DNA from: a virus
Lineage: Duplodnaviria > Heunggongvirae > Uroviricota > Caudoviricetes
Virus record (IMG/VR): IMGVR_UViG_3300038393_002131
DNA: 64,000 nt
Reading direction: 5' to 3' (one strand)
How positions within the stretch are numbered: position 1 is the stretch's first letter; every line of letters begins with the position of its first letter. The notes under the pieces were generated by a model. It did not search any database and was not told the origin of the DNA. It saw nothing but the letters and a program-made list of their open reading frames with translations. A program made the translations under genes and the position numbers. Positions 2,105-32,631 of the stretch are shown piece by piece.

Positions 2105-2881
2105 TCAGGCGGGGACGATGTGCGGCAGCACGCCCGTCGTCGCGCCGTAGATCACCCAGCGGGCGTGCCCGGCGCGGACGAGGCCGTCGAGCGTCTTGCG
2201 CTCCCACGGCGTCTCATTGCCGCCCGACCACCGGCCGCGCCCGGCCGGCCACAGGTTGCCGCGTCGGCGCAGCGCGGCGAGGGCGTCGCGCTGGGTGCGG
2301 GTCAGGTCCTTCTCGGCGACGCGCTCGGCGGGCGGCTCCGGGTACCCGCACTCGCGCACGCGGGCGGCGTTGGCCTCGCGCTCGGCGGCGGCTGCCCGCT
2401 CGCGGCGGTCGGCGGTCGCCTTGGTGACGGACGCGTCGAACTCGGGGCCGAAGTGCTGCCCCAGGGCGAGCACGAGCGCCTCGAACGAGCCCTCGGCGTC
2501 GGCGATCAGGTGCGCGGCGGTCATCTCGTCGAGCTGGCACGCGCCGTCGATGTACGGGGCGCTGTGGAAGTTCTCAGCGTCGCGCTCCGGGTCGAACGTC
2601 ACGTACGAGCCGAGGTAGCCGTACGCGGACGACTCCGTGACGGTGAACGCGCGGAGCCGCGCGGCGGGCTCCTCGCGCATCCACGCCAGCAGCTCGGACG
2701 CGACCGTCTCGGCCTCGCCGCACGGGTGCTCCTCCACGGTGATCTGGATGTGGCTCTCGCCCTCGTGGTAGCGGTCCCAGCCGTCGAAGTCGAGGCGGGT
2801 CGTCAGCGCGTCGAGCGTCGCGTCGTCGAACGTGTGCTCGGCGTCCTCGAAGTCGACGGCGAAGTAGGTCCGGTCAGTCAT
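2105..2881 (-). CDS. hypothetical protein (258 aa)
   Basis: Protein-like ORF; leader hairpin ggtcccggcgacgcttggccggggg at ~2895-2920; terminator hairpin upstream at 2937-2972. Confidence 0.6.
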   Translation of the reverse strand: MTDRTYFAVDFEDAEHTFDDATLDALTTRLDFDGWDRYHEGESHIQITVEEHPCGEAETVASELLAWMREEPAARLRAFTVTESSAYGYLGSYVTFDPERDAENFHSAPYIDGACQLDEMTAAHLIADAEGSFEALVLALGQHFGPEFDASVTKATADRRERAAAAEREANAARVRECGYPEPPAERVAEKDLTRTQRDALAALRRRGNLWPAGRGRWSGGNETPWERKTLDGLVRAGHARWVIYGATTGVLPHIVPA

Positions 2882-2936
2882 GGGAAGTCTCCTCGTGTGT
2901 CGGTCCCGGCGACGCTTGGCCGGGGGTGGTGGGGTG

Positions 2937-2972
2937 AACCCTTGCCGGGCCCGGGCGGACCCGGCAAGGGTT
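2937..2972 (-). terminator. hairpin terminator after gene 2980..3966
   Basis: AACCCTTGCCGGG / CCCGGCAAGGGTT 13-bp stem. Confidence 0.5.
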
Positions 2973-2979
2973 CAGCGGT

Positions 2980-3966
2980 TCAGGCGTTGAGGTAGTCGCG
3001 GGCGGCGGCGTCGGGGTCGTCGGCGTTGTCGATGGTGACGTGGTCGGGGTCGTCGTCGGGGTCGTCGTCGCCCATGGCGTGACCGGCGAGGAAGGTCGCG
3101 GCCTCGTCGGGCTTCCCGAGGTCGATGAGCGCGTGGGCGATGTTCTCGGCCTCCGAGCAGGTGAAGTGCCCGCCGACGTGCTGGGCCGTCATCGCGTCGC
3201 CGAGCACGGCAGCGAGCAGACCGGCGGCGGCCTCGGCCGGGGTCGGGGCGGGCTTGCCGTCGCGGAGCGTGCCGTCGAACCCGGCAGCCTCGGCGGTGTC
3301 GAAGTCGACGAGGTCCTCCTCGGCGAAGATGTCACCCGGGTAGACCTGCGTGACCTCGACGCCGGAGAGGCGAGGACCGAAGTAGTGCGGCGACAGCGCA
3401 CCGTCAACAGCGGTCAGAGCGTCGGCCGTGACGCGCTCCGGGTCCTCGTCGCCGTCCTGCGACCCGTCGGGGAGGGTGAGCTCGACGAGGAGGTAGCGCA
3501 CGACATTGCTCGCCTGGTCGTCGTCGGCCCGCTTGAACGGCTGCACGGGGTCGTCGTGGTCCAACACCACGGGATAGCCGAGGTTCGTGAGGCGGGCCTC
3601 GCCGTCGAAGTGCTCGGCGTCACCGCAGACGATTCGGCCCCCGGGGCGGTCGAGGCACGGGCCCTCGTGGTCAACGTGGATGCCACAGGCGTCGGCGCAC
3701 ACGGCGTGCTCCGGGTGCTCCTCGTCGTCGGCGTGCTCGCCGTTCGGGTAGCGGGTCGGTCGGGCGTCGAACGCGGCCTCGTACGCGTCATCGTCAGCCG
3801 CGCGCTCGGGGACGGTCAGTGGCGGCGTCCACCCATCCTCGGCGACCTTGACCTTGAGGCCGTCGTCCCACGCGACGCGGACGGGCGCGCCGTGGGCGTC
3901 GGCCCGGGTCAGCAGCTCGGCGAGGGTGAGGACGTTGGACGCGGACATGGTGTGGATGGTGCTCAT
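2980..3966 (-). CDS. acidic hypothetical protein (328 aa)
   Basis: RBS GAGGAG 7 nt before the ATG; promoter-leader cassette at 3967-4058. Confidence 0.6.
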   Translation of the reverse strand: MSTIHTMSASNVLTLAELLTRADAHGAPVRVAWDDGLKVKVAEDGWTPPLTVPERAADDDAYEAAFDARPTRYPNGEHADDEEHPEHAVCADACGIHVDHEGPCLDRPGGRIVCGDAEHFDGEARLTNLGYPVVLDHDDPVQPFKRADDDQASNVVRYLLVELTLPDGSQDGDEDPERVTADALTAVDGALSPHYFGPRLSGVEVTQVYPGDIFAEEDLVDFDTAEAAGFDGTLRDGKPAPTPAEAAAGLLAAVLGDAMTAQHVGGHFTCSEAENIAHALIDLGKPDEAATFLAGHAMGDDDPDDDPDHVTIDNADDPDAAARDYLNA

Positions 3967-4058
3967 GGTGGCTCCTCAGTGTGTCTGGCCGGGACGCTCG
4001 TCCGGCTCTGCGAGTGACTTTAGCGGCTGTGCACGACAGTGGGGAAGGGTTCGACAGG
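3967..4058 (-). promoter_or_regulatory. promoter-leader cassette (TTCCCC-N18-TAAAGT; hairpin CCGGACGAGCGTCCCGG; GACACAC; GAGGAG)
   Basis: Read directly. Confidence 0.5.
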
Positions 4059-4955
4059 TCAGGCCGCGCCGAACAGGTCAAGGGCGTACTGCTTCGGGGT
4101 GCGCAGCGACGCCAGGACGTCCTCGCGCCACTGGACGGCGTACCGGAGGCAGTTGCGGCAGTCGCCACGGTGCGTGCATCCGGGCATCTTGATCTGCTCG
4201 CGGCGGGCCCCGTACGACCATGCGAGGGAGTCGGCCGAGACGAGGTTGTGGCCGTAGGAGGCGAGGCCCTGAGCCTTGACGCCGAACCCGTGGAGGCGCA
4301 GGCCGCGCGCGGCGAGCGTGCCGGTGATGAGGCCAATCTCGTCGGTGGACTGGCGGCGGCACACGGAGCCGAGGCCGACCAGCTGCTCGTCGGCGAGGTC
4401 GATGCCTGCGGCGGCGTACTGCTCGACGTGGGACAGGTAGTCGTCGAGGGTCCAGCCTTGGAGGACGGGCACCCACGGCGCGGCGGGGAAGTTCTCGCGC
4501 AGGTAGATCAGGTTCTCGATGGTCAGCTCTTGGTGGATCGCGACCGACAGGCCGGTGCCGGCGAACGTGTTGCCGTTCCACGTGCCGCCCGCGATGACGG
4601 CCGGCTCGCACATCCAGTCCTGCGGGGCGCACCACAGCGGGACCGCGCCGTCCTCCATGAACCGGTAGACCATGCCGCCGTACTCGTCCTCGCTCATCGT
4701 CCAGCGGCCGTGCTGCTGCAGCTCGGTGAAGCCACCGGAGTCGAGCGCCCACGCGCACCGGCCCTTGGGGAAGTCGTCGCCCTGGCGGCGGTACTTGGCG
4801 AGGGTGCGGGCCGACACGAACAGCGGCACCGGGCTCGTCTCCATCCAGCGCGGCATGTGGCAGCCGGTGAAGAACAGGAGGTGGCGGGCCGGGTCGTCGC
4901 TCGCACGGTCGGTCGTCCAAGCCGTCTCGACCTCGCGCCACAGCTGCTCGTACAT
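4059..4955 (-). CDS. DpdA/tRNA-guanine-transglycosylase-like protein (putative DNA 7-deazaguanine transglycosylase)
   Basis: Start re-assigned to M41 (MYEQLW) with RBS GAAGGAG; ALDSGGF resembles the TGT catalytic TDSGGFQ motif; C-terminal Cys/His cluster PGCTHRGDCRNC resembles the TGT Zn site. Confidence 0.55.
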   Translation of the reverse strand: MYEQLWREVETAWTTDRASDDPARHLLFFTGCHMPRWMETSPVPLFVSARTLAKYRRQGDDFPKGRCAWALDSGGFTELQQHGRWTMSEDEYGGMVYRFMEDGAVPLWCAPQDWMCEPAVIAGGTWNGNTFAGTGLSVAIHQELTIENLIYLRENFPAAPWVPVLQGWTLDDYLSHVEQYAAAGIDLADEQLVGLGSVCRRQSTDEIGLITGTLAARGLRLHGFGVKAQGLASYGHNLVSADSLAWSYGARREQIKMPGCTHRGDCRNCLRYAVQWREDVLASLRTPKQYALDLFGAA

Positions 4956-5043
4956 GGGGGGCTCCTTCGGTGGTGTCGGCCCCGCGACGCTCGGCGGGGC
5001 ATGGCCCAACCATGCCGGGCCGGGCCGACGGTGGCAACGGTTC

Positions 5044-5079
5044 CCGGCATGGTGCGACCCCCGCGCCGGAGCCATGGCG
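5044..5079 (-). terminator. terminator after the small Lys-rich gene
   Basis: GCGACCCCCGCGCC / GGCGCGGGGGTCGC 14-bp stem. Confidence 0.5.
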
Positions 5080-5105
5080 CGGGGGTCGCAGTCTGTGGGG
5101 GCGGG

Positions 5106-5276
5106 TCAGCCTCTCGCGGCCTTCTTCGCGAGCTTGGTCTGTTCCTTGAGCAACTTCGTTTGCTTCTTCGCGTGGCGCTTGGCCGTCCGCGCGTAGGCGG
5201 CGGCGCGCTCCTTGTCGGAACGGAAGTCGACCGCGCCGAGGGTAGAGACGCTGAGGATCTTGCGGGTGAGGCCCAT
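5106..5276 (-). CDS. small Lys-rich basic protein (56 aa), absent from the ORF track
   Basis: ATG at 5276 with RBS AGGAGCACCC; MGLTRKILSVSTLGAVDFRSDKERAAAYARTAKRHAKKQTKLLKEQTKLAKKAARG; followed by a 14-bp-stem terminator at 5044-5079. Confidence 0.35.
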   Translation of the reverse strand: MGLTRKILSVSTLGAVDFRSDKERAAAYARTAKRHAKKQTKLLKEQTKLAKKAARG

Positions 5277-5318
5277 CGCGGGTGCTCCTAGGTGAGTGTG
5301 GTTGGGATCGGTGTGCGG

Positions 5319-5597
5319 TCAGCGGGCTCGAGTCGCCTCGCGGGCGGTGACGCGGGCGGCGTAGTCCTCGACGCAGAGGGGCCACCCTGCGCGCTCCTTG
5401 GTCGCGGGCCGGGGGCATTCGTCGACGGAGCACGAGACGGCGGGGTCGTCGCCCTGGGGGTCCTCGACCGGTGCCGGGGCCGGCACGGTCGCGGCGCGGC
5501 GCTTGGCGCGCTCCTCCCACACGTAGTTCGCGAGGACGACGAGGGCCAGCAGGGCGAACGCGGCGTACTGCCAGGTCGGGGTGTCGGCGAGGTTCAT
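5319..5597 (-). CDS. small membrane protein (92 aa)
   Basis: One hydrophobic helix (AAFALLALVVLANYVW); 4-nt overlap with the upstream gene. Confidence 0.45.
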   Translation of the reverse strand: MNLADTPTWQYAAFALLALVVLANYVWEERAKRRAATVPAPAPVEDPQGDDPAVSCSVDECPRPATKERAGWPLCVEDYAARVTAREATRAR

Positions 5598-5836
5598 GCG
5601 GCCGACCCCGACACGGGCGAGTCGTTGACGTAGACGCGGAGGGCGGGGTCGTCCTCGGCGGTGTCAATGTCGACGACGAGGTACGGCGCGCCACCGTCGG
5701 ACGGGTGGTGCCAGTAGACAGCGACGCGGGCGGCGTCGTGCTCGACGGCGACAACGGCATCGCCGTGCGGGTGGTCGATGGTGTGCGTGACGCCGCCGTC
5801 CTGCGCGGTGTCACTGGTGACGGTGAGCTCGCTCAC
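5594..5836 (-). CDS. hypothetical protein (~81 aa)
   Basis: GTG start at 5836 with RBS GAGGAG and leader hairpin ccggcgacgctgtgccgg; the Pro/Arg-rich 5' part of the track ORF is rejected. Confidence 0.45.
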   Translation of the reverse strand: MSELTVTSDTAQDGGVTHTIDHPHGDAVVAVEHDAARVAVYWHHPSDGGAPYLVVDIDTAEDDPALRVYVNDSPVSGSAA

Positions 5837-6032
5837 GGGGGTGCTCCTCGGGGTGTCGGTCCGGCGACGCTGTGCCGGTGGGGGTGTGCGACCCGGCGCG
5901 GGTGGGTGGTGGTTGGGGTCACTTGCCCGCGCCGGGCCTGTCGTGGGGTGTTGCCCCGGGCCGGGGCCCTCGCGCTTGGCAGGGTGTGGGTCGTCACCTG
6001 CGTGCGCTCGGGCTCCCGGGGCCCCGGGGAGG

Positions 6033-6689
6033 TCAGGCGGTCTTGGCGAGCCGTGCGGCTCGGGCGGCGTGGTTCTCGGCGACCCACGCGAGCGGGTTGG
6101 TGTAGCCCTGCTCGATGCGGTCGGCGACGGCGTCGTAGAACAGGACGCGATCGGTCGGGCCTTCCTCGTCAAGAAGGGCGGCGGCGGCGGCGCGGTACGC
6201 GTCGAGCACGGGCTGTGCGTCCTCGATGGTCTGTAGGCGGTAGAGCGCGTCGCAGGTGCCGCAGGCGACGGTGATGACGAGCTTGCCCTCCCACTGGCGC
6301 TGCCCGACGAGGCGGAGCACGGGGCTGTTGGCGACCTCGGCGGCGTAGGGCTCGGCGGGGATGGTGCGGCCGTCGTTGGAGGCGGGGCACGGGAGACGCT
6401 TGGGCGTGCCCCACGTCTCGACGTCAGCGGCGGGCGCGCTGTAGTGGCGGGTGTCGGCGTCGGAGAGCCACAGGAGCGCGTCCAGCATGGGGACGTCGTC
6501 GCGGCGGTTCCAGTCCTCGGTCATGCCGGGCTTGTGGCCGTCCTCGTCGGGCCACGGGAACCGGTAGAGCCAGCCGGGCTCGGTGTAGGTGGGGGACACC
6601 TTCATGGCGTCCTCGGCGCGGAGGCCGTAGAGGGACTCGCAGGTGCCGACCTTGATCGACCGGCCGTTGTAGGTGGCGTACTCGCCCAT
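6033..6689 (-). CDS. hypothetical protein (218 aa)
   Basis: RBS GAGAAGGGG; best-formed cassette upstream (TTGACC-N17-TAAAGT plus hairpin) at 6690-6775. Confidence 0.6.
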   Translation of the reverse strand: MGEYATYNGRSIKVGTCESLYGLRAEDAMKVSPTYTEPGWLYRFPWPDEDGHKPGMTEDWNRRDDVPMLDALLWLSDADTRHYSAPAADVETWGTPKRLPCPASNDGRTIPAEPYAAEVANSPVLRLVGQRQWEGKLVITVACGTCDALYRLQTIEDAQPVLDAYRAAAAALLDEEGPTDRVLFYDAVADRIEQGYTNPLAWVAENHAARAARLAKTA

Positions 6690-6775
6690 GGGGATTCCCC
6701 TTCTCGGTGTGTCCTTGTCGGGGACGCTTGTCCCGACACCCCTGACTTTAGGGGCTGTGCACTACAGGGTCAATG
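6690..6775 (-). promoter_or_regulatory. promoter-leader cassette (TTGACC-N17-TAAAGT; hairpin GTCGGGACAAGCGTCCCCGAC; RBS GAGAAGGGG)
   Basis: Read directly; closest match to the sigma-70/SigA-type consensus. Confidence 0.6.
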
Positions 6776-6884
6776 GTTCGCGTGTCGGCGAGTCACGGCA
6801 CCGGCACGGGGCCGGCAGGTGAGGCGGTCAGCCACACCCACACGACCCCGGCCAGCACAGACAGGGCAACGGCCTGCCAGACCT

Positions 6885-8087
6885 TCACGCGACCAGTCCG
6901 GCGCGCTCCATGATGTTGCGTACCACGTCCTCCTCATACTCGTCCCAGCACGCGGCGAGCAGCTGGTCGAGGCGGTCCGGCTCGGCGTCCTCGACTGCCT
7001 GGGCGGCCGTCTCGGCGCGGGTCAGGTAGCGGCCCGTCTCGATCCAGCTCTGCCGCGACGCGCTCGACTCCGTGTCGAGGTCGCCCTCGACGTGCGTCCA
7101 CGTGACGCCGAACCGCTCGGCGAGCTTGCCGGCCACCTGCTCGGCCTCCTCGCTCGTGGGGAAGTCCGCGACGTGCATGGTCGGCCGGGCGGTGTAGGTG
7201 ACGTAGATGCCCCACACGTCGGGGGCCTCGCCGTCCTCGGCGGGCCGGGCCTCGTCCTCGGTGACGCGGACGGCGGTCACCTCGAAGGCGTTGAGGCCGA
7301 CGGCGCGGGCCGGGAGGTACTGGCCGTGACGCTGCCAGTGGTCGAGGGACTCGTGCGACCACAGGTCCGCGTCGACGCGCTCGACGTCGTTCTTCTCGCA
7401 GCGGTCGTCGGTGTCGTCGTCACCCTGCCCGGGGCACCGGTTGTCGTCGTTGCCTCGGTGGATGAACTCGCCGCGGGTGTTGTCGAACCACACGACCGCC
7501 GCCTCGTCGGCATAGTCGATGCAGCGGCCGCACACGGCGACGGTGCGCAGGGCGCGGTCGTGGTTGTAGGTGCCGCCGTCGCGCTTGTCGACGGAGCGCC
7601 AGTAGGCCAGGGCCTCGGCCTCGGCCTGCGGGTCGGGCGTGATGTGGTTCGGCGGGGTCGGGGCCGACTCGTCGGACGAGAAGGCGCGGTGCGGCTCGGC
7701 GTGGCCCCGGAGGGCGAACGAGGTGGCGTTGTCGATGTTGAGGCGGACGGACCGGCCCCGGGTGAGGAGGGCCCGCTCGCCGTCGATGATCGACTGCTCC
7801 AAGTAGCGGATCGCGGACGTCTTGGGCTTGAGCACGCCGCGGCCGATGACCTTCTCGGGGCGGATGCGGTTCGCGCGGACGTCGTCGAGCATCCGCCTGT
7901 CGCGGACGAGCTCGCGGAGGAAGTGCTCCTCGCCCCATCCGAGCAGCTCGCCGCGCCAGATGCCGTCGAGGTAGTCGTTGACGGTGGCCGGGCGGGCCGG
8001 GACCATGCGCACCTCCTCGCGGAGCATGTAGTCGCGCAGGGTGGTCGCGGTGAAGGTGACGGGGGCCTCGGTGGTCGTGGTGCTCAT
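6885..8087 (-). CDS. hypothetical protein (~400 aa)
   Basis: Start re-assigned to M65 (MSTTTTEAP) next to a leader hairpin at ~8105-8125; acidic protein with Cys-rich segment CGRC...C...C. Confidence 0.6.
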   Translation of the reverse strand: MSTTTTEAPVTFTATTLRDYMLREEVRMVPARPATVNDYLDGIWRGELLGWGEEHFLRELVRDRRMLDDVRANRIRPEKVIGRGVLKPKTSAIRYLEQSIIDGERALLTRGRSVRLNIDNATSFALRGHAEPHRAFSSDESAPTPPNHITPDPQAEAEALAYWRSVDKRDGGTYNHDRALRTVAVCGRCIDYADEAAVVWFDNTRGEFIHRGNDDNRCPGQGDDDTDDRCEKNDVERVDADLWSHESLDHWQRHGQYLPARAVGLNAFEVTAVRVTEDEARPAEDGEAPDVWGIYVTYTARPTMHVADFPTSEEAEQVAGKLAERFGVTWTHVEGDLDTESSASRQSWIETGRYLTRAETAAQAVEDAEPDRLDQLLAACWDEYEEDVVRNIMERAGLVA

Positions 8088-8145
8088 GGGATCGTGCTCG
8101 CTCTCTGTGTCGGCCGGGACGCTGTCCGGCGGGGTGTGGGGCCCA

Positions 8146-8175
8146 CCTTGCCCGGCCGGTGTCGACCGGGCAAGG
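8146..8175 (-). terminator. hairpin terminator after gene 8186..8719
   Basis: CCTTGCCCGG / CCGGGCAAGG 10-bp stem. Confidence 0.45.
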
Positions 8176-8185
8176 GTTGTGACGG

Positions 8186-8719
8186 TCAGAGGGACGCGGC
8201 GTCCTCGGCCTCGGCGCGGGCCCGGCCGACGGTCAGGCCACGGTCGTACTCGGCCTGCTGCCAAGGGTTCTCGTACCACGTCGGCTCGGTGCCGTAGTAG
8301 CCGACGGAGTACCCCTCGGCGAACGCGGACGTCTCCTCAACGTTGCAGAGGCAGCCCTCGCGCGCGCCCGGCACGCGCTCTGCCCGCAGACGGCGCACGG
8401 TGCCACCCTCGAGCCGGAGGTCGGCGACGTCGGAGTGCAGCTGGTCGCGCGTCTGGTGGTAGGTGACGAACGTGCCTGGGGTGCCCTTCCGCTCGCCGAC
8501 GAGCATGTAGTGGACGTGCTCGCGGCCAGCGGCCAGCGCCCACCCGACGTGGTTCTCGCCGGTGTCGGCGCACTCGATGATCGGGACGTACGTGCCAGCG
8601 TTCGGGGCGTTGGTCAGGGCCTCGACGACGCGCTTGACGACGGCGTACTCCTCGTCGGTCAGGTCGAGGGCGACACCGAGGGTGTCCTCGCCGGCGAGGT
8701 AGATGAGACGTTCGGACAT
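8186..8719 (-). CDS. hypothetical protein (~177 aa)
   Basis: Start at M71 (MSERLIY); leader hairpin ggccggggacgctggcccgggcc at ~8742-8765. Confidence 0.55.
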   Translation of the reverse strand: MSERLIYLAGEDTLGVALDLTDEEYAVVKRVVEALTNAPNAGTYVPIIECADTGENHVGWALAAGREHVHYMLVGERKGTPGTFVTYHQTRDQLHSDVADLRLEGGTVRRLRAERVPGAREGCLCNVEETSAFAEGYSVGYYGTEPTWYENPWQQAEYDRGLTVGRARAEAEDAASL

Positions 8720-8807
8720 GGGATGGCTCCTTGGGTGTCGTGGCCGGGGACGCTGGCCCGGGCCGGGTGTGTCGAGCATGGCGCCGGGCGCGCGGTCCGG
8801 CAAGGGT

Positions 8808-9020
8808 TCAGATCGGCGACCCGTCCCGCAGGACGACGCCGGGTGCGATGGGGACGACGTTGACGTCGTCCGGGTAGAACGGGAGGCCGAACACGCGGAC
8901 CTGCTCGCAGTGCCGCTCCCACGCCTCACGGAGCGCCGTGAGCGCGGCCTCCGGGGACTCGGCCAGGGCGGTGAAGTCGTAGTGCCTCGTCGAGTAGGTG
9001 GCGAGGAACAGGGCGCTCAC
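8808..9020 (-). CDS. hypothetical protein (70 aa)
   Basis: Compact ORF; 4-nt overlap with 9017..9373. Confidence 0.5.
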   Translation of the reverse strand: MSALFLATYSTRHYDFTALAESPEAALTALREAWERHCEQVRVFGLPFYPDDVNVVPIAPGVVLRDGSPI

Positions 9021-9373
9021 CGGTCGGCCTCGAACCCGGTCGCGGTGCGGGCGTGGAACCAGTCCCCCGTGGGCCCGTACGCGCCGTCGACGCGCAGCCA
9101 GACCTTCCAGTCGGGGCCGAGGACCGCGCGGTAGACGCGGCCGCGCAGGTGGGCGGTGCCGGGCTGGCCTGCGGGCTGGCCGCGGTGGTGGTCCGGGTTC
9201 GGGTAGAGGCCGTGCTCGAGGACCGTGCCGTCGGTGAGGACGACGACGGTGTCGGGCGTGTGCGGCTCATTCGCGGTCGCGGTCGGGCACTCGACGCGCG
9301 GGTGGCGCTGGGTGGCGACGTGGTCGCCCCGGTCGGCGCAGGTGGCGTGCTCGCGGGTGAGGTTGATGGTCAT
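9017..9373 (-). CDS. hypothetical protein (118 aa)
   Basis: Protein-like ORF with RBS upstream. Confidence 0.55.
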   Translation of the reverse strand: MTINLTREHATCADRGDHVATQRHPRVECPTATANEPHTPDTVVVLTDGTVLEHGLYPNPDHHRGQPAGQPGTAHLRGRVYRAVLGPDWKVWLRVDGAYGPTGDWFHARTATGFEADR

Positions 9374-9416
9374 GGGGATGCCCCGTTCTGCTCGATGGTG
9401 CGGGATGGGTGGGCCG

Positions 9417-9779
9417 TCAGGCGACGGCGGGAAGGTCGGCCAGCTCCTGCGCGATGAACCCGACCTCCCAACGGTTGAGGCCGTTAGCGGCGTGCGTCGG
9501 CTTGCCGTGCACGTCCTGCCACGCGGGCAGGTCGTAGCGGGCCACGTCGTAGCGGTCGATGCCGTAGCCGCGCACCACGAGGACGGTGTCGTCGGCCCGG
9601 TAGATCGTGACGGCGAGGTCGACGTCGCGCGGGTCGAGCTCGACGTCGTACTCGATGCGCTCGTGCCCGAGGTACTGGCCGAGGACGTCGAGGCCGGTCA
9701 GCGACAGCAGGCGGGTGCGGCGGCTGACGGTGCCGGTGTGGGCCGGGGTGACGACCGGGATGGTGGACGTGGCGTGCAT
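9417..9779 (-). CDS. hypothetical protein (~120 aa)
   Basis: Start at M22 (MHATSTI); cassette at 9780-9865 (TTCCCT-N17-TACGCT, hairpin with AGAGCGTC loop). Confidence 0.5.
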   Translation of the reverse strand: MHATSTIPVVTPAHTGTVSRRTRLLSLTGLDVLGQYLGHERIEYDVELDPRDVDLAVTIYRADDTVLVVRGYGIDRYDVARYDLPAWQDVHGKPTHAANGLNRWEVGFIAQELADLPAVA

Positions 9780-9865
9780 GGGATGCCTCCGTGGCGTGTC
9801 TCGGTCGGGACGCTCTCCGACCTGATGTGCAGTAGCGTACACCGGCGCAACGACAGAGGGAAGGG

Positions 9866-10033
9866 TCAGCGCAACGTCACGACGAGGCCGGCCAGCATCA
9901 CCACCACCGCGGCGACGACGCCGGCCAGGGCGGGCCCTCCCCCGTCCGTGCGCGGCACCGCCCGCCGCCGGGCATCCCGGGCGGCGAGCGGCACGAACAG
10001 CGCAGCGGCGGCGAGCAGGGCCAGCAGGGTCAC
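9866..10033 (-). CDS. small two-helix membrane protein (~55 aa)
   Basis: GTG at 10033 overlaps the TGA of the methyltransferase gene (GTGA); strongly hydrophobic. Confidence 0.3.
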   Translation of the reverse strand: MTLLALLAAAALFVPLAARDARRRAVPRTDGGGPALAGVVAAVVVMLAGLVVTLR

Positions 10034-11727
10034 GCGGCGTAGGCGTCGGCGACGACGCCCATGATGTCGCGGGAGCACGGCGGGCACACAGCGTTCCCGG
10101 CCATCTTCACGAGGTCACGCTTCGAGGGGGTCTTGCCCTTCTCGTCCTTGACGTCCCACCGGTAGTTGCGCGGGAACGCCATGCCCGCGGCGGCCTCGTG
10201 CGGTTGCAGCATCCGCAGGTAGCACTCTGACACGAGCTCCTCGGCGCGGCGCAGGTCGCCCGGGTCGACAGCCGGGCGGGGCTTGCGCGGGTCGGCGTGC
10301 ACGAGGGACTGGTGCGCGGCCGTGGTGATGGTCCGCAGGTACTCGGTGACGGGCGTGCTCATCTCGGACCCGCCGTGGTTGTTCCGCATGATGAGGGCGT
10401 GGCGGTCAACGGTCGTGACCGTGTCCATCGCGTCGCTGACCGGCTTCGCCGTCTTGCCGTTGCCGTAGTAGGACTGGATCAGGCTCATGTTGCCGCCCGA
10501 GCCGGTGATGGTCCGCAGGAACTCGTCGACGGGCGTGGAGTGGCGGGCCGGGTCGCCGCCCGGGACGCCGTAGTGGCGGGTGATGAGGGCGTGGTGGTTG
10601 CCGGACGCGGTGAACGTCGCCGCGGGCTCGGTCAGCGGCCGCGTCTCGGAGTGGCCGCCGCGCAGCTCGGCCATGAACGGGGCCGTGGCGAGAGCGGTCT
10701 CGGCGCGGGTCGTCTGCGTGCGCAGCGCCTCCCACATCGCCTGCGCGTCCTTGCCGGCGCGGCCCTCGACGGGCACGGCCAGGGCGTACGCCTCGCGGGT
10801 CGTCAGGGTGCGCAGGGCCTCCTCGACGGAGCGGGCGTCCTCGTTCCACGTCCCGCCCGACGGGACGACGGTCGGCGTCATCCAGTAGCGGGCGATCCCG
10901 GCCGCGATCCTCGCGCGGGTCTTGGCCGCGAGGCGGTCGCCGATCAGGTCGCCCTTGAGGGACCAGTCAATCGCGGTGTAGGCGGGCAGGTAGCCCGGCT
11001 CGACGACGGTGCCGCACGCGCCGTGCACGTAGACGTAGGACTGGCGGTAGCGGCCGACGGTCGCGCCGCCCTTCCACGACTGGTTCGCCTCGATCATCGC
11101 GTCGCACTTCGGGCAGTACGCCTTCGGCCGGAGGATCCGGTCGAGGTCGGGGACCGGGTTGCCCTTGATCCACGCCACGATGAAGATGCGGTCGCGGGAC
11201 TGCGGGGCGGGCATCCCGAACGTCTGAGCGTGCATCGCGTTGAGCGACACGACCCGGAACTCGTAGCCGAGCGCGGTCAGCTGGCGGCGCCACTCGTACC
11301 ACGCGAGCCGGTACTTCGCCTGGACGGCAATGTCGACGACGTTCTCCACGATCACGACGGAGTAGCGGTGGTGCTCGACGAACTTGAGCACGTCGAACAT
11401 CAGCAGCCGGGAGCGGTGCGTCGCCTCGTCCGAGAGCGGGTCGGCGAACAGGCCTTCCTCGATCTTCTCGCGGGCCTTGCCCGATGCCTGGGACCACTTC
11501 GTGCACTCCGGGGAGGCCCACAGGACGTCGGTGCGCTTGAAGAACGACGGGCGTTCCATGTGGAGGTCGACGGCGGCGTGGTCGGTGTCGGGGTGGTTCT
11601 GGTTGTGGACCTCGATCGCGAGCTTCCAGTGGTTCGCGGCCTGCGTCACCCGGACACCGGGGATCTGCACCATGCCGGTCGAGGACCCGCCTGCGCCTGC
11701 GAAGTGGTCAGTGACGGTGAGGGACAT
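10030..11727 (-). CDS. DNA (cytosine-5)-methyltransferase
   Basis: Motif I FAGAGG, motif IV-like SPECTKWS, motif VI VIVENV; 565 aa. Confidence 0.85.
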   Translation of the reverse strand: MSLTVTDHFAGAGGSSTGMVQIPGVRVTQAANHWKLAIEVHNQNHPDTDHAAVDLHMERPSFFKRTDVLWASPECTKWSQASGKAREKIEEGLFADPLSDEATHRSRLLMFDVLKFVEHHRYSVVIVENVVDIAVQAKYRLAWYEWRRQLTALGYEFRVVSLNAMHAQTFGMPAPQSRDRIFIVAWIKGNPVPDLDRILRPKAYCPKCDAMIEANQSWKGGATVGRYRQSYVYVHGACGTVVEPGYLPAYTAIDWSLKGDLIGDRLAAKTRARIAAGIARYWMTPTVVPSGGTWNEDARSVEEALRTLTTREAYALAVPVEGRAGKDAQAMWEALRTQTTRAETALATAPFMAELRGGHSETRPLTEPAATFTASGNHHALITRHYGVPGGDPARHSTPVDEFLRTITGSGGNMSLIQSYYGNGKTAKPVSDAMDTVTTVDRHALIMRNNHGGSEMSTPVTEYLRTITTAAHQSLVHADPRKPRPAVDPGDLRRAEELVSECYLRMLQPHEAAAGMAFPRNYRWDVKDEKGKTPSKRDLVKMAGNAVCPPCSRDIMGVVADAYAA

Positions 11728-15782: not shown

Positions 15783-16829
15783 TCACGCCGACACGCTCGA
15801 CGCGGCCAAGGCGCGCTCGTCGATCACCGCGGCGAGCCGAGCCCCGACCCACTCCCCCAACTTCGCGTGGACACAGTTGCCGAGCATCGTGAACCGGGCC
15901 GACGGCGGCACCCCGGGCACATCGGTCCAGCCGTCGTCGAACCCGGACAGCCGCTCCCACTCCGTGAGGGTCAGAGTGCGGAGCCGGCCGTCGTCGACGA
16001 GCAAGTGCTTCTGCCGCAGCGGGCCGCCCGGGTCGTAGCAGGCGAGGGTGTTCGCGACCTCGGACCGGACCCACGTCTCCCAGCCGCCCTCCTCGATGGA
16101 GGCACGGGCGTTCGCGGACTTGCGCCACACGGTCACGGCGTCGCGGCGACGTCCTCCACTAGGGCGAGCAGCTCCGGGTCGACTCGCGCCATGCCCGGGG
16201 AGAGCAGCCGCGGCAGGAACTTCCGGGCCTGTGCCGGTGTCATCCAGCACTGACCAGGCGACGGTGGGATCTCCCGAACGATGTCCGACCAAGATGATTC
16301 GCGGACGGTCTTGGAGGGTGTCAAGGTGTCCCCCGTCCAGCAGGCGCCACGCGTACCCATACCCGAGGTCCCCCAAGGCACTTTGCGCGTGCCACCAATC
16401 GCGGCCGCCGTTAACGGTGAGAGACCCGTCGGGATTCTCGATGACGACCCACTCGGGTCGGGCCTCGTCGACGAGCCTGATCTGCTCGTAGAACAGGCTC
16501 GAGTCTTTGCCTCGGAGGCCGGTTCGTTTCGTGGCTCCCTTGCTGGTCTGCTTGCAGGGGAATCCCCCCACAAGGACAGTTGGGTCACCGAGGTCTGCTC
16601 CGTTGACATTGCGCACGTCCTCCAAGATCGGGATGCCTGGGAAGCGCGTGGCGAGCACGGAGCGGGCGTGGACGTCCTTCTCCACCATGACGGTGCAGCG
16701 CATGCGGGCGTGCATTCCGAGGTCGAGTCCTCCGATGCCGGAGAACAGGGACGCGAACGTCGTGGGTGTGTGCATGGGTTGGCGCTTCCTGTGTGTCGCG
16801 CGGGGTCGCTTTCCCGCGTCACAGCCCAT
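15783..16829 (-). CDS. DNA (cytosine-5)-methyltransferase, Dcm-like
   Basis: Motif I FASLFSGIGGLDLG, motif IV GFPCKQTS, motif VI-like VVIENP; 348 aa. Confidence 0.8.
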   Translation of the reverse strand: MGCDAGKRPRATHRKRQPMHTPTTFASLFSGIGGLDLGMHARMRCTVMVEKDVHARSVLATRFPGIPILEDVRNVNGADLGDPTVLVGGFPCKQTSKGATKRTGLRGKDSSLFYEQIRLVDEARPEWVVIENPDGSLTVNGGRDWWHAQSALGDLGYGYAWRLLDGGHLDTLQDRPRIILVGHRSGDPTVAWSVLDDTGTGPEVPAAAALPGHGASRPGAARPSGGRRRDAVTVWRKSANARASIEEGGWETWVRSEVANTLACYDPGGPLRQKHLLVDDGRLRTLTLTEWERLSGFDDGWTDVPGVPPSARFTMLGNCVHAKLGEWVGARLAAVIDERALAASSVSA

Positions 16830-17506: not shown

Positions 17507-17947
17507 TTAGCGACCTAACGCTAGTGACACAAGGGAATCGTCGTCGGAGTAGACGACGCGCTCGATACCGGCGGCCGTGAGGAGCTTCTGGCAACCGGGG
17601 CATGGCGGGTCGGTGATGTACGCCGTCGCTCCTCGAGCGTCGGCCCGGTCGGCGTACAGGAGTGCGTTCGCCTCGGCGTGGACGGCGACGCAGTACCCGG
17701 GCGAGCCGGGCCGGTCGTAGTCGCCGAGGCCGGCCACCTGCTCGTAGGTGAGGAGGCCTCGCGGGCACTCCCCCGCCAGGCATGACGCTCCCCCGGACGG
17801 GCCGCCGTTGTAGCCGGTGCTGACGATCCGGTGGTCCTTGACGAGGACGCAGCCGACGGTGCGGCGGCGGCAGTCGGCTCGAGCGGCAACGGCCGTCGCG
17901 ATGCCGGCGAAGTAGTCGTCCCAGCCGGGTCGGGTCAGTTGTTCCAT
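17507..17947 (-). CDS. dCMP/cytidine deaminase-family protein
   Basis: Start at M72 (MEQLTRPG); zinc ligand motifs HAEANAL and PCPGCQ. Confidence 0.8.
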   Translation of the reverse strand: MEQLTRPGWDDYFAGIATAVAARADCRRRTVGCVLVKDHRIVSTGYNGGPSGGASCLAGECPRGLLTYEQVAGLGDYDRPGSPGYCVAVHAEANALLYADRADARGATAYITDPPCPGCQKLLTAAGIERVVYSDDDSLVSLALGR

Positions 17948-29454: not shown

Positions 29455-30096
29455 TTACTCGACGACCTCGGCGATGACCTCACCGATGTCGACGGTGTCT
29501 CGGTCTGCGTCAGAACCGATCTGAGCCGGCGTCGCCGCCGCGGCCAGGGCCTCGGCGAGGTTGCCGGTGATCTTGTCGGCCAGCTCGGGGACGTTGACGG
29601 TGACGTCGACCTGCCCGTTGACGTTCTGGTCGACCGTGACCTGCTTGCCGAAGTGGCTGCGCTCCTGCCGTTCGAGCCACCACGCGGCCGCGCGCCAGTC
29701 CGGGGGTGTGCGCTTCTCGGACTTCTCCTCGACGACGTTGCCCTCGGTGTCGCGGTACTTGCGGGTCGTGACCTCGGTGACCTGCCCGCCGACCGCGGAC
29801 TTGCGGATGAGCGCGGCCGAGGTGACGGTGGCGTGCGCGCGGGCCTTGAGGATCTTCTCGTACAGCTCGAGGTACTTCGTCTCGACGGGGTCGGGCTCCT
29901 CCCCCGCCGCTCGGGCGTTCTGCTCGTTGTGGCCGCGGCGCATCCAGTCCTCGAAGGTGCGCTTGGAGATCCCGACGTAGTCGGCGGCCAGGCCCATGGG
30001 AGTGCCGATCTTGGTGGCCTCGATCAGCTTCTCCTCGACGTCGCGGTCGAGGAGGGTGGGGCGGCCGGGTTCCCGGCGCGAACGGCGGCGAGACAT
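29455..30096 (-). CDS. HTH DNA-binding protein (possible terminase small-subunit-like)
   Basis: Basic N-terminus MSRRRSRREPGRP then HTH (LAADYVGISKRTFEDWMRRG); acidic C-terminus; function uncertain. Confidence 0.4.
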   Translation of the reverse strand: MSRRRSRREPGRPTLLDRDVEEKLIEATKIGTPMGLAADYVGISKRTFEDWMRRGHNEQNARAAGEEPDPVETKYLELYEKILKARAHATVTSAALIRKSAVGGQVTEVTTRKYRDTEGNVVEEKSEKRTPPDWRAAAWWLERQERSHFGKQVTVDQNVNGQVDVTVNVPELADKITGNLAEALAAAATPAQIGSDADRDTVDIGEVIAEVVE

Positions 30097-30099
30097 GGG

Positions 30100-30741
30100 T
30101 CAGTCGTCCTTTCCGGGGATGAACTCGTGGTAGCAGTTGGGGCACATGACGATCCGGTCCTTGGCCGGGGTCGGGGTGTCGTCCCCGAGGAGGTCGTCCT
30201 CGTCGTCGTCGACACGGGCTGGCTCGGTGTCGTCGTCGAGGCCGTCGCGGTCCGGGTCGTAGACGCGGAACAGGTCGTCGAGCTCGTCGGCGCCGAAGCC
30301 GATGCCGTCGAACAGGGCCGCGTCGGCGGCGTGCACGTCGTGCAGCATCTCGGCCAGGAGGCGGTCATCCCAGCCGCCGGCGACGACCAGCTGGTTGTGC
30401 AGGATGATGAACGCCTCGGCGTGGGCGTCGCTCTTGGACGACCATCCGCGCTGGATGGGGACGAGCCACTCGCCGTCCTCGTCGATCATGATGCCGTCGG
30501 GGATCTGCTCGCCGCGGGCCTTCATGTCGACGAGGGCCTTCGTGCGGCCGTGGCCGGCGACGAGCCGCTGCGTGCGCTCGTCGAGGATGGCCGCGTCGGC
30601 GAAGCCGTGCTCCTCGATCGAGGCGTTGATGTCCGGATCGGAGTGCTTCTTCGGGTTCCGGAAGGCTGGGGGCACGTCGCAGAGCCGCACGTAGTCGATG
30701 CGGCGCGGTGCCAGGGGAATGCGAGAGGGCTCGGTCACCAC
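30100..30741 (-). CDS. ParB-like nuclease-domain protein
   Basis: DYVRL...NPKKHSD...IEEHGF...LVAGHGRTKAL matches the ParB N-terminal fold; C-terminal CPNC zinc ribbon; start uncertain (GTG ~30741). Confidence 0.6.
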   Translation of the reverse strand: MVTEPSRIPLAPRRIDYVRLCDVPPAFRNPKKHSDPDINASIEEHGFADAAILDERTQRLVAGHGRTKALVDMKARGEQIPDGIMIDEDGEWLVPIQRGWSSKSDAHAEAFIILHNQLVVAGGWDDRLLAEMLHDVHAADAALFDGIGFGADELDDLFRVYDPDRDGLDDDTEPARVDDDEDDLLGDDTPTPAKDRIVMCPNCYHEFIPGKDD

Positions 30742-30936
30742 AGAAACGTGGACGACCGAGCCCTCTTGTGTCGCGTGCTCGTCAGCGGACCCGCAGCGCC
30801 TCACGGGCCGGGCCGGGGCGAGCCGTCTCGTTGCGGCGGAAGATCCACCGCTCCAAGCGGATCCACCACGGCGTCGGCAGCTCGCGCGCCGGACGTGTCG
30901 TGCCGTCGGGCAGTCGCTCGAAGTTCTGCGGCCCGG

Positions 30937-31236
30937 TCACTGCTGGGCGTCCTTGCAGGACGGGTCGGCGACCATGCTGATGGCGCGGGCCTCGCTCTGG
31001 CCGGAACCGACCGTCGAGGTGCTGTAGCGGATGCCATCGACGCAGACGGTGGCGATGTTGCCGTAGCCGTCAGGCATTTCGATGATCGTGACCGGCTTGT
31101 TGATGCGGGGCCCGATGGGGGCGTCCTTGAACGTCTCCTGCGCCTTGTCCATGAAGCCGGACGCCCCGCAGGCTCCGAGGAGCCCGACGGCGGCGGTCAC
31201 GGCGACGAGCGCGGCGGCCGCGCGGCGGCGGGTCAC
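30937..31236 (-). CDS. small lipoprotein (~99 aa)
   Basis: GTG at 31236 overlaps the TGA of the SPFH gene (GTGA); signal peptide with lipobox AAVGLLGACG. Confidence 0.5.
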   Translation of the reverse strand: MTRRRAAAALVAVTAAVGLLGACGASGFMDKAQETFKDAPIGPRINKPVTIIEMPDGYGNIATVCVDGIRYSTSTVGSGQSEARAISMVADPSCKDAQQ

Positions 31237-32138
31237 TTCGCCCCCACGAGGATGCTCGCCCCCGGACCGCCCATGCCGCAGTTGAAGGTGGCCGGGAGCG
31301 GGCCGTTCTTCTGGACGTCCCACGCGTTGACGACCTCGAGGCAGTAGCGGACCTGCGCGGCCGGGGTCAGTGCGCCCTCGCGCTCACGCAGCTTGGCCGT
31401 GTCGGCGTCGATCTTGGCGCGCTCCTGCTCGGCGAGAGCCGTCGCCACGTTGTTGTTCGCGATGACGGTCCGCTCGAGGCTCTTGGCCGTGGCGGCATCG
31501 AGCTGGACGCCCTTGATCGAGACGGAGTCGATGAGGATGCCGTCGTCGACGAGGCGGGCCCCCAGGCCCGTCTTGACCGCGTCGCTGATGGGCCTGATGT
31601 TGGCGCCGGCACGGGCAGCGTTCGGGGCGTACTGGCCGATGACCTCACGGAAGGCGTCCTGAGCCTCGGAGAGCACGAGCGAGTCGCGGACGGTGTCGAA
31701 GGTCTTGTACTTCTTCCAGAGGTCCTCGGCCTTGGCCGGGTTGATGCGCCAGCGGACGACGGCGTTGACGATGCCGTTGCCGCCCGAGCTGTTCTTGTCG
31801 GTGCCGGCGAACGCGACGCTGACGGCGTTGCCCTTGGAGTCGTCGAGGTCGGACAGGTCGAGCGGCTGCGCCAGGGTGGAGAACTCCTCGACCTCGGACC
31901 ATGGCGAGAGCATGTGGGCGCCGGACTGGATGGTGTCGCGGTACTGCCCGAAGGAGGTCTGGATCGCGACGGCGCGAGCATCGACCTTCGTGAAGGACGC
32001 GAAGCCGGTCACGAGGAGCAGGAGGACGAACGCGACGGCGGCGATGGCCGCGGCACCGCCGTTGCGGCCGACGATCGCGACGGCAGTGGTGATGAGCACC
32101 ACGAGCAGCGCGACGACAGCAAAGATCACGTAGAGCAT
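31233..32138 (-). CDS. SPFH/band-7 (stomatin/prohibitin-like) membrane protein
   Basis: Start at M124 (MLYVIFAVVALLVVL TM helix); SPFH-like core (TSFGQYRD...GAHMLSPW) and coiled-coil C-terminus; class-I leader hairpin at ~32165. Confidence 0.65.
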   Translation of the reverse strand: MLYVIFAVVALLVVLITTAVAIVGRNGGAAAIAAVAFVLLLLVTGFASFTKVDARAVAIQTSFGQYRDTIQSGAHMLSPWSEVEEFSTLAQPLDLSDLDDSKGNAVSVAFAGTDKNSSGGNGIVNAVVRWRINPAKAEDLWKKYKTFDTVRDSLVLSEAQDAFREVIGQYAPNAARAGANIRPISDAVKTGLGARLVDDGILIDSVSIKGVQLDAATAKSLERTVIANNNVATALAEQERAKIDADTAKLREREGALTPAAQVRYCLEVVNAWDVQKNGPLPATFNCGMGGPGASILVGAK

Positions 32139-32262
32139 GACGGGTTTGGGTTCCCTTCTCAGGTGTCGGGTGACCGGGACGCTTGTCCGGTCAGTCGCAG
32201 CATAGAGGAAGCCCGCGCGTTGGGGGGTTCCAACGCGCGGGCTCCGGTCGTGTGGGTGTCGT

Positions 32263-32499
32263 TCAGACGTAGGCGTTCTCGCGGCGCCAGTTGCGGGCGT
32301 GGTTCTTCGCGTGGGCCCGGGCCCGGGACACATGCCCGATGTGCCAGTGGTTGCCCCACAGGCACTTGTACGCCCGGAACTTCCCGCCGTACTGCGCGCG
32401 CATCGAGGGGATGCCAGCCGAGGCGTCAGCCTTCGTCTCGTGCTGCTGCTTGCCGAGGCACATCGACTCGAACGACTCGTCGTTGTGGTGGTGGGCCAT
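32263..32499 (-). CDS. small His/Cys-rich protein (78 aa; possible HNH-like metal-binding)
   Basis: MAHHHNDESFESMCLGKQQHE...KCLWGNHWHIGH; leader hairpin at ~32530. Confidence 0.4.
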   Translation of the reverse strand: MAHHHNDESFESMCLGKQQHETKADASAGIPSMRAQYGGKFRAYKCLWGNHWHIGHVSRARAHAKNHARNWRRENAYV

Positions 32500-32631
32500 G
32501 GGTACATCGCTCCTTCGGTGTCGAGCCCGGGACGCTTTCCGGGCTGTTGGGGATGACGGTAGAACGAGCGGGGGGCACCGTCAACGGTTCTCGTCGACGA
32601 CGCCCCCGGCTTGGTTGCGGCACAGGGCCGG

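Follow-up and report, generated by a model that had tools for sequence, protein, structure and literature searches.

The question considered here is how a phage might use an enzyme of the DpdA type, which inserts 7-deazaguanine bases into DNA, when the genes that make such a base are not found beside it. It is raised by a gene at positions 4059 to 4955 (minus strand) of a 64,000-nucleotide stretch of Caudoviricetes DNA, the IMG/VR virus record IMGVR_UViG_3300038393_002131; this whole stretch is referred to below as the window. The product is a compact homologue (298 amino acids, aa) of the DNA-guanine transglycosylases that share the fold of tRNA-guanine transglycosylase (TGT), and is of the type represented by gp20 of phage Orion and by the Pfam family PF23859. 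The reading that we favour, with about even confidence, is that of a DNA base-exchange enzyme depending on salvage or on its host for the precursor base.

The maximal open reading frame (ORF) over the gene extends from 4059 to 5075 on the minus strand and would encode 338 aa. A Shine–Dalgarno sequence read from the DNA, GAAGGAG (4962 to 4968, minus strand), lies six bases ahead of the ATG at 4955, and the nearest homologues are 290–300 aa long and open with MYEQLW, as the protein does when translated from 4955. Because of this spacing and these homologue lengths, the start at 4955 was preferred over that of the longest ORF, in agreement with the first-pass annotation of the stretch. That annotation had placed the protein in the TGT/DpdA family and named a Pfam search as a check. 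In that search, PF23859 (DpdA) matched with an E-value of 2.5e-70 and 237.2 bits against a gathering cut-off of 27, over profile positions 5–251 of 291, which bears the placement out. The protein also matched PHROG 1279, labelled “queuine tRNA-ribosyltransferase”, at E 1.9e-73. Database searches returned 6262 homologues at E ≤ 1e-5, and PF23859 was found in all 120 among the matches listed. The closest entry in the protein collection was 87% identical, and the exact sequence of the window's DpdA was not found there.

The remaining resources gave a more distant picture. None of the NCBIfam models matched the protein, and searches of the PDB sequences, whether with the single sequence or with a profile of 37 sequences, matched no chain. 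Only the fold search connected the protein to solved structures, the top one being an archaeosine TGT of 577 aa. The AlphaFold2 model used for it, built from 47 homologues, had a predicted local distance difference test score (pLDDT) of 93.1 and a predicted template modelling score (pTM) of 0.90, and formed the (beta/alpha)8 barrel of the TGT type. Among viral models, the best match was a homologue from mycobacteriophage Bella96, followed by remote TGT-like phage proteins. The assignment as a TGT-fold protein of the DpdA type is secure. The protein is a compact member of the TGT/DpdA superfamily, made up of a TIM barrel and a predicted zinc site. Its clade, PF23859, occurs across Actinomycetota in phages, plasmids and integrative elements.

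Conservation was assessed across the same number of homologues (47, down to 49% identity). The residues D72, S73, D113, E117, H141, Q166, G167, G196, S197, C199, R200, H222, F224, G225, K227, D242, S243, W246, S247, C266 and C269 were invariant, and C260 and H262 were conserved in at least 90% of the sequences. Such strict conservation suggests that a catalytic set is under selection. The two signatures on which the first-pass annotation had relied, ALDSGGF (residues 70–76; 4728 to 4748, minus strand) and the C-terminal Cys/His cluster CTHRGDCRNC (residues 260–269; 4149 to 4178, minus strand), are both present. Profile alignment with hhalign paired ALDSGGF with TDSGGFQ of Escherichia coli TGT, placing Asp72 at Asp89; the predicted roles are general acid/base for Asp72 and base stacking for Phe76. 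The same +4 spacing separates Asp95 and Phe99 of bacterial DpdA (PMC10164549). The DSGGF segment was the only one that hhalign aligned with E. coli TGT, and the other catalytic residues were not mappable in that way. When the family profile was aligned with the DpdA of phage Rosebush (E 1e-4), the DSG(G/A)F, VGLG, HG(F/W)G and (A/V)DS motifs all corresponded.

The remaining assignments draw on biochemically characterised enzymes. In Salmonella DpdA, Asp95 acts as the general acid/base, Asp130 and His181 recognise the base and Asp256 is the nucleophile; replacement of Asp95 or Asp256 by alanine abolishes guanine exchange (PMC10164549). Judged by motif order and spacing, Asp113 in QDWMCEP (4602 to 4622, minus strand) is probably the counterpart of TGT Asp156 and bacterial DpdA Asp130, and is predicted to recognise the guanine-like face of the base. 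On the same grounds, rather than by superposition, Gln166 would occupy the position of TGT Gln203. The glycine-rich loop GLGSVCRR (4353 to 4376, minus strand), which aligned with VGLGG of Rosebush gp2, is predicted by analogy with TGT and bacterial DpdA to line the 7-substituent pocket. Asp242 in ADSLAWS (4215 to 4235, minus strand), a motif aligned with SVDSSGW of Rosebush gp2, has the motif order and spacing expected of an equivalent of TGT Asp280 and bacterial DpdA Asp256, and is the predicted catalytic nucleophile. Finally, Cys260, His262, Cys266 and Cys269 in CTHRGDCRNC (C-x-H-x3-C-x2-C) form a predicted structural zinc site, as carried by TGT and bacterial DpdA (PMC10164549).

The surroundings of the gene point to DNA as the target. 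The first-pass annotation had reported two C5 cytosine DNA methyltransferases in the window, and both proved real. Methyltransferase 1, an orphan enzyme of 566 aa (10030 to 11727, minus strand), matched PF00145 at E 1.9e-25 and contains the motifs FAGAGG, PEC and ENV. Methyltransferase 2, likewise an orphan (15786 to 16829, minus strand; approximately 330–348 aa with a start at either 16829 or 16775), matched PF00145 at E 4.9e-38 and contains FSGIGG, FPCKQ, IENP and GNCV. In L002 and L003, the metagenomic phage loci closest to the window (DpdA identity 77–78%), DpdA has a homologue of methyltransferase 1 nearby. DNA methyltransferase genes were found near DpdA in the window, in both of these loci and in StevieRay, phiLM21 and Gilgamesh, and an Embleya plasmid carries two cytosine methyltransferases near its DpdA. 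Because DNA methyltransferase genes recur beside DpdA, a DNA rather than a tRNA target is favoured. The two methyltransferases of the window were not detectably similar to each other by phmmer (E 0.53). The third-position G+C content of methyltransferase 2 was 0.81, compared with 0.86–0.96 in most neighbouring genes, and this gene may have been acquired recently.

On actinomycete chromosomes, the PF23859 DpdA gene forms a conserved part of an integrative element, in which the order is ~740-aa protein, DpdA, Prim-Pol (PF09250), DUF3631 and tyrosine integrase. The four partners of DpdA were present in 38, 15, 16 and 21 loci, respectively, and the Prim-Pol was sometimes fused to a SLOG/YAcAr domain. 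Examples are L025 (6355–13453), L039 (10801–11751), L042 (1892–3094) and L084 (13808–15073).

Genes for 7-deazaguanine synthesis were sought in the window by Pfam scans of 226 ORFs, comprising 69 called genes, 10 gap ORFs and 147 further six-frame ORFs. The gene calls were based on G+C at third codon positions (GC3) and miss genes of lower GC3, which the gap and all-frame ORF scans cover. The 226 ORFs contained no match to GTP cyclohydrolase I, PTPS/QueD, radical-SAM/QueE, QueC, QueF or Vut_1 (VUT/YhhQ). Six-frame tblastn and phmmer searches of the window with Rosebush QueC, QueD, QueE and FolE gave nothing below E 0.04; as a control, which concerns the QueC probe only, this probe picked up QueC in 337 diverse phage records, ranging from Vibrio to Bacillus. 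Since single-sequence probes can miss divergent members, as illustrated by the failure of methyltransferase 1 to find methyltransferase 2, the Rosebush probes were not used alone. Together, the two approaches support the earlier observation that queC, queD, queE and folE are absent from the window. One ORF at 6885–8279 (minus strand) was considered as a QueC and rejected: its phmmer E-value of 0.042 to Rosebush QueC is noise, and it has no Pfam or PHROG family and no PP-loop motif. This protein of approximately 400–464 aa is partly similar to ORFs located within 8 kb of DpdA in L002 and L003.

The absence has to be read against the extent of the sequence. Neither Pfam scans nor homologue searches found terminase or portal genes in the 64-kb window, which is part of a phage genome and not the whole; tens of kilobases may be missing. 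Because these genes were not found and related contigs measure 79–135 kb, the terminase–portal region is placed outside the window. In terms of the groups of Hutinet et al. (2019), the window does not encode the combination of DpdA with FolE, QueD, QueE and QueC that defines the self-sufficient systems of groups 1 and 2. Over its 64 kb it agrees with the DpdA-only definition of group 3, which applies to entire genomes; the complete genome of the Streptomyces phage Gilgamesh fits that definition. The description as a lone DpdA holds for the window and probably for the whole phage genome.

This combination has precedents. The third and largest group of Hutinet et al. (2019) comprised 76 phages with DpdA and without proteins for G+ or preQ0 synthesis, and the authors suggested that such phages might use preQ0 of the host or take it up (PMC6884629). 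“DpdA-only” phages have thus been known since 2019, the lone-DpdA combination is shared by hundreds of related phages, and the window is an ordinary addition to them. Of the 408 GenBank phage records in which tblastn found the PF23859 clade, 399 are from Mycobacterium phages; the gene usually stands alone, for example beside the integrase in Chris. Orion is the only member of the clade analysed by liquid chromatography–mass spectrometry. Its gp20 (L103, 2867–3643) was the best scorer against PF23859 among the proteins compared (467 bits), shares 44% identity with the window protein over 264 residues and has all the catalytic motifs and the Cys/His cluster in common with it. Orion also resembles the window phage, as far as the window shows, in lacking preQ0 and G+ synthesis genes, and in having an actinobacterial host, probably one without the queuosine pathway. 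The two differ in lineage, Orion being a cluster B1 phage and the window phage a Gilgamesh-like large siphovirus or phage-plasmid; moreover, the window protein has approximately 40 additional N-terminal residues, and two C5 methyltransferases are encoded alongside it.

Gilgamesh (MN234216) provides the closest comparison for a whole genome. Its gp114 scored 264 bits against PF23859 and is 40% identical to the window protein; the genome is syntenic with the window from the capsid gene to a sigma factor, contains a DNA methylase gene and lacks que genes according to both its annotation and a six-frame search. Unlike the gene in the window, gp114 lies on the strand opposite to the structural genes. 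A PAPS-reductase-like protein (PF01507), gp116 (L101, 3185–4276), is encoded two genes from the Gilgamesh DpdA and has no homologue in the window.

The experimentally established systems are more distant. Rosebush gp2, encoded by a phage with dPreQ0 in its DNA, and the DpdA of phage CAjan, which is genetically required for modification, belong to the same superfamily, and base-exchange chemistry on DNA would be expected by analogy. Nevertheless, Rosebush gp2 (L004, 789–1946; 385 aa) is a remote homologue, related to the window protein at the hhalign E-value given above, with no PF23859 match at E ≤ 1 and no Cys/His cluster at the corresponding position. Rosebush and CAjan also carry queC, queD, queE and folE beside dpdA, whereas the window does not. 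Bacterial DpdA (Salmonella Montevideo, PDB 7UI4) is 13% identical, is longer (413 aa) owing to extra insertions, requires the DpdB ATPase and acts with DpdC–K, none of which is encoded beside the gene in the window. Because gp20 of the unmodified phage Orion is the highest scorer for PF23859, whereas gp2 of the dPreQ0 phage Rosebush is not recognised, the name DpdA is inferential for the PF23859 clade. Both this Pfam label and the GenBank label “queuine tRNA-ribosyltransferase” stand for inferences rather than demonstrated activities.

A link between the clade and 7-deazaguanines comes from a recurrent neighbour. In 10 of 80 genome loci, a gene of the VUT/YhhQ family (PF02592) abuts the PF23859 DpdA on the same strand; six of these loci are from Streptomyces, two from Nocardia, one from a Pseudonocardiaceae member and one from Sorangium. 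The VUT genes lie mostly at approximately 9150–10000 of the respective loci (L016, L021, L022, L027, L043, L051, L053, L054, L058 and L072), with the exceptions of L016 (approximately 280–910) and L058 (4750–5670). In an Embleya and a Nocardia plasmid (L104, 6282–7004; L105, 6414–7013), the DpdA homologue (47% and 44% identity, respectively) directly follows a gene annotated as “VUT family protein”. In Sinorhizobium phage phiLM21 (L107, 3447–3974), the VUT–DpdA pair is followed by a methyltransferase gene, and the DpdA is 42% identical to that of the window. The paired transporters exceed the Pfam threshold for PF02592, and in a neighbour-joining tree the VUT-linked DpdAs fell on at least five separate branches. 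YhhQ, the founding member of the VUT family, is the E. coli preQ0 transporter, as cited in PMC6884629 and PMC7544227. Therefore, the pairing ties the PF23859 clade to a 7-deazaguanine substrate. YhhQ beside dpd genes has been reported earlier, in the CAjan cluster and in approximately 9% of bacterial dpd islands (PMC11888242), and the pairing described here is in line with existing ideas and not new in kind. In cluster-P mycobacteriophages, the DpdA-like protein paired with a VUT gene is a different one, and DNA methylases accompany the pair.

Precursor supply from outside the phage also has an experimental basis. In folE and queC deletion mutants of CAjan, modification persists at an approximately 12-fold lower level from preQ0 made by the host (PMC7544227), and thus a phage DpdA can use a precursor that the phage does not make itself. 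In some actinomycetes, preQ0 or CDG is formed as an intermediate in the production of toyocamycin, tubercidin and related antibiotics (PMC6112128).

According to the mechanism that homology would predict, Asp242 would attack C1' of deoxyguanosine in double-stranded DNA while Asp72 protonates the departing guanine. A free guanine-like 7-deazapurine, held by Asp113, Gln166 and the GLGSV loop, would then resolve the covalent intermediate. Since the window contains no gene to make or import this base, the precursor would have to come from the host cell or from environmental uptake. Where the substrate is available, a 7-deazaguanine mark might be added to the 5-methylcytosine produced by the two orphan C5 methyltransferases, giving a layered anti-restriction coat; where it is absent, as for Orion grown on Mycobacterium smegmatis in the laboratory, nothing would be written. 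Layered anti-restriction modification had already been suggested in the first-pass annotation, and the methyltransferases of the window and the recurrence of DpdA with such genes agree with it, provided that the 7-deazaguanine mark is made conditional on precursor supply. In this conditional form it is the best available model for 7-deazaguanine in the phage DNA.

Several observations weigh against this reading. Orion DNA contained no dPreQ0, dADG, dG+, dPreQ1 or dQ by liquid chromatography–tandem mass spectrometry (PMC6884629), and our literature search gave no demonstrated activity for any PF23859 protein. The earlier claim that the enzyme inserts a preQ0-type base accordingly stands as far as the DpdA-type family is concerned, whereas insertion itself is not established, the DNA of the phage with the 44% identical protein being unmodified and the Rosebush DpdA being only a remote relative. 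No DpdB, DpdC or dpdD–K gene adjoins the gene in the window, although bacterial DpdA needs DpdB. The window contains no VUT gene according to four VUT probes in all frames and Pfam scans for PF02592, and no VUT-linked DpdA falls within its sub-clade on the tree (the window, L002, L003 and an Actinopolymorpha element). In addition, streptomycetes are reported to lack key homologues of the queuosine pathway as well as tgt (PMC9262613), so that there may be no host pool of preQ0. The earlier suggestion that host precursors are used therefore has a precedent in CAjan and a difficulty in streptomycetes.

Some of these points also bear on a reading that we regard as rather unlikely, namely that no known 7-deazaguanine is put into phage DNA during real infections. 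The enzyme would then be silent or serve another base or task, such as the exchange of a different purine analogue or the removal of a modified base as counter-defence. The unmodified Orion DNA and the concentration of the clade in Actinomycetota (Mycobacterium phages in all but nine of the 408 phage records; actinomycetes in nearly all of the 80 genome loci kept) fit this reading, as does the report that M. smegmatis and streptomycetes lack a preQ0 pathway (PMC6884629, PMC9262613). For the invariant C199–R200 pair of the pocket loop, no equivalent has been described in either TGT or bacterial DpdA. On the other hand, the strictly conserved catalytic and base-recognition residues of the TGT type argue that a guanine-like base is exchanged, and the repeated, polyphyletic pairing with a preQ0-transporter family indicates a 7-deazaguanine substrate. 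Hutinet et al. explained the Orion result by M. smegmatis lacking the pathway (PMC6884629); because the phage was grown without a precursor source, a negative is what a salvage-dependent enzyme would give. A narrower form of this alternative, in which the lone PF23859 DpdAs of actinobacterial elements exchange guanine for another purine-like base or act in counter-defence by base excision or exchange, with no known 7-deazaguanine involved, appears unlikely. If true, it would explain the success of the clade in hosts lacking a preQ0 pathway, the unmarked Orion DNA and the invariant Cys–Arg pair.

The remaining alternatives concern the source of the base and the nature of the target. It is quite improbable that the phage makes its own preQ0 from folE, queD, queE and queC located outside the window, in a standard self-sufficient system for dPreQ0 or a derivative. 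The first-pass annotation had allowed for synthesis genes elsewhere, and the incomplete sequence leaves room for them: the terminase–portal region of a genome related to contigs of up to 135 kb is unseen, the window can be aligned only to 49–87 kb and the DpdA of the 129-kb Gilgamesh genome, and the que genes of Rosebush lie at the genome end beside the terminase. Yet the complete Gilgamesh genome has a DpdA and no que genes, and none were found within 10 kb of DpdA in approximately 95 related loci, including the two closest metagenomic phage loci, the 80 genome loci, 12 IMG/VR loci and a 135-kb Actinopolymorpha element. In three relatives, the 10 kb upstream of the capsid gene were likewise free of them. 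In phages that possess que genes, these normally adjoin dpdA, and this dpdA is of another clade, as in Rosebush. Far less probable still is that the protein is a TGT remodelling host or phage tRNA, as the tRNA-enzyme label of PHROG 1279 and of most GenBank phage records would have it. The protein had no match to the tRNA-guanine transglycosylase family PF01702 at E ≤ 1, whereas E. coli TGT reaches 560 bits, and its 298 aa accommodate only the barrel and zinc site, without the tRNA-binding extensions of bacterial and archaeosine TGTs, the archaeosine TGT at the top of the fold search having 577 aa. Furthermore, the window contains no tRNA genes, streptomycete tRNAs are reported to lack queuosine (PMC9262613), and the gene family is set in mobile elements among DNA methyltransferase and DNA replication genes. 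Salvage- or host-dependent base exchange on DNA is the reading favoured here.

The wider context of the window is that of a large actinobacterial phage, with high-G+C bacteria of the soil as its hosts. Its G+C content is 68–74%, and nearly all coding is on the minus strand. A megablast search of positions 3000–9000 against GenBank phages gave no match, indicating that no close sequenced relative exists among them. Among isolated phages, Gilgamesh (129,136 bp; host Streptomyces lividans) is the nearest, with a capsid protein 60% identical to that encoded by the major capsid gene of the window (61984–63282, minus strand). From this gene to the sigma factor, the window from 63.3 to 26 kb is collinear with 49 to 87 kb of Gilgamesh; upstream of its capsid gene, Gilgamesh has the terminase and portal genes and approximately 49 kb of further genes. 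Homologous capsids (58–62% identity) were present in dozens of Streptomyces assemblies, on contigs or named plasmids of approximately 125–135 kb, and relatives carry ParA/ParB, FtsK-like and AAA_10 genes; the lineage looks like one of phage-plasmids. A capsid protein 100% identical to that of the window (P0121) occurs on JGI metagenome contigs of up to 3 kb, and the same phage or a very close relative is thus present in an environmental data set. The closest DpdA on a long contig (78% identity) is on a 96.5-kb Logan contig, the capsid of which was not among the best 120 capsid homologues.

Within the window, the gene belongs to a co-directional run from 6689 to 2980, upstream of which lies a match to a sigma-70-like promoter, TTGACC-17-TAAAGT (6745 to 6773, minus strand). 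One such site was found compared with 0.1 expected in shuffled sequences; it is a consensus match only. Terminator-like sites were not found within 2800–7000, and the ten genes around dpdA have no Pfam or PHROG function. A ParB-like protein (30100–30804, minus strand; phrog_620, E 6e-25) adjoins a homologue of the terminase small subunit (29455–30096, minus strand), and the pair is kept in Gilgamesh (gp84 and gp85). A ParB-like gene lies directly upstream of dpdA in Rosebush. The ParB-like protein of the window was considered as a DpdB-like partner and rejected, given its distance of 25 kb from dpdA and its pairing with the terminase-small-subunit homologue as in Gilgamesh. The window further contains a dCMP deaminase gene (approximately 17510–17940, minus strand) with an HAE...PCxxC motif, and gap ORFs matching deoxynucleotide monophosphate kinase (PF21448), NUDIX hydrolase and a WhiB regulator. 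A set of genes for nucleotide metabolism might be relevant to DNA modifications of other kinds. A long ORF at 31236–32765 (minus strand) contains an SPFH/Band 7 domain (PF01145, E 9.6e-16).

The locus adds a case to the puzzle recognised in 2019, in which a conserved DpdA is kept, mostly by phages of Actinobacteria, although neither the phage nor its host seems to make the substrate. As a test system, the window offers no advantage over the cultured phages with the same gene, which number in the hundreds and comprise mycobacteriophages and Gilgamesh-like Streptomyces phages. For the clade as a whole, these results lead to the testable suggestion that 7-deazaguanine is written into the DNA of mobile elements only when the base can be scavenged. 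If the enzyme is indeed dependent on salvage, the DNA mark of these elements would be conditional on their environment.

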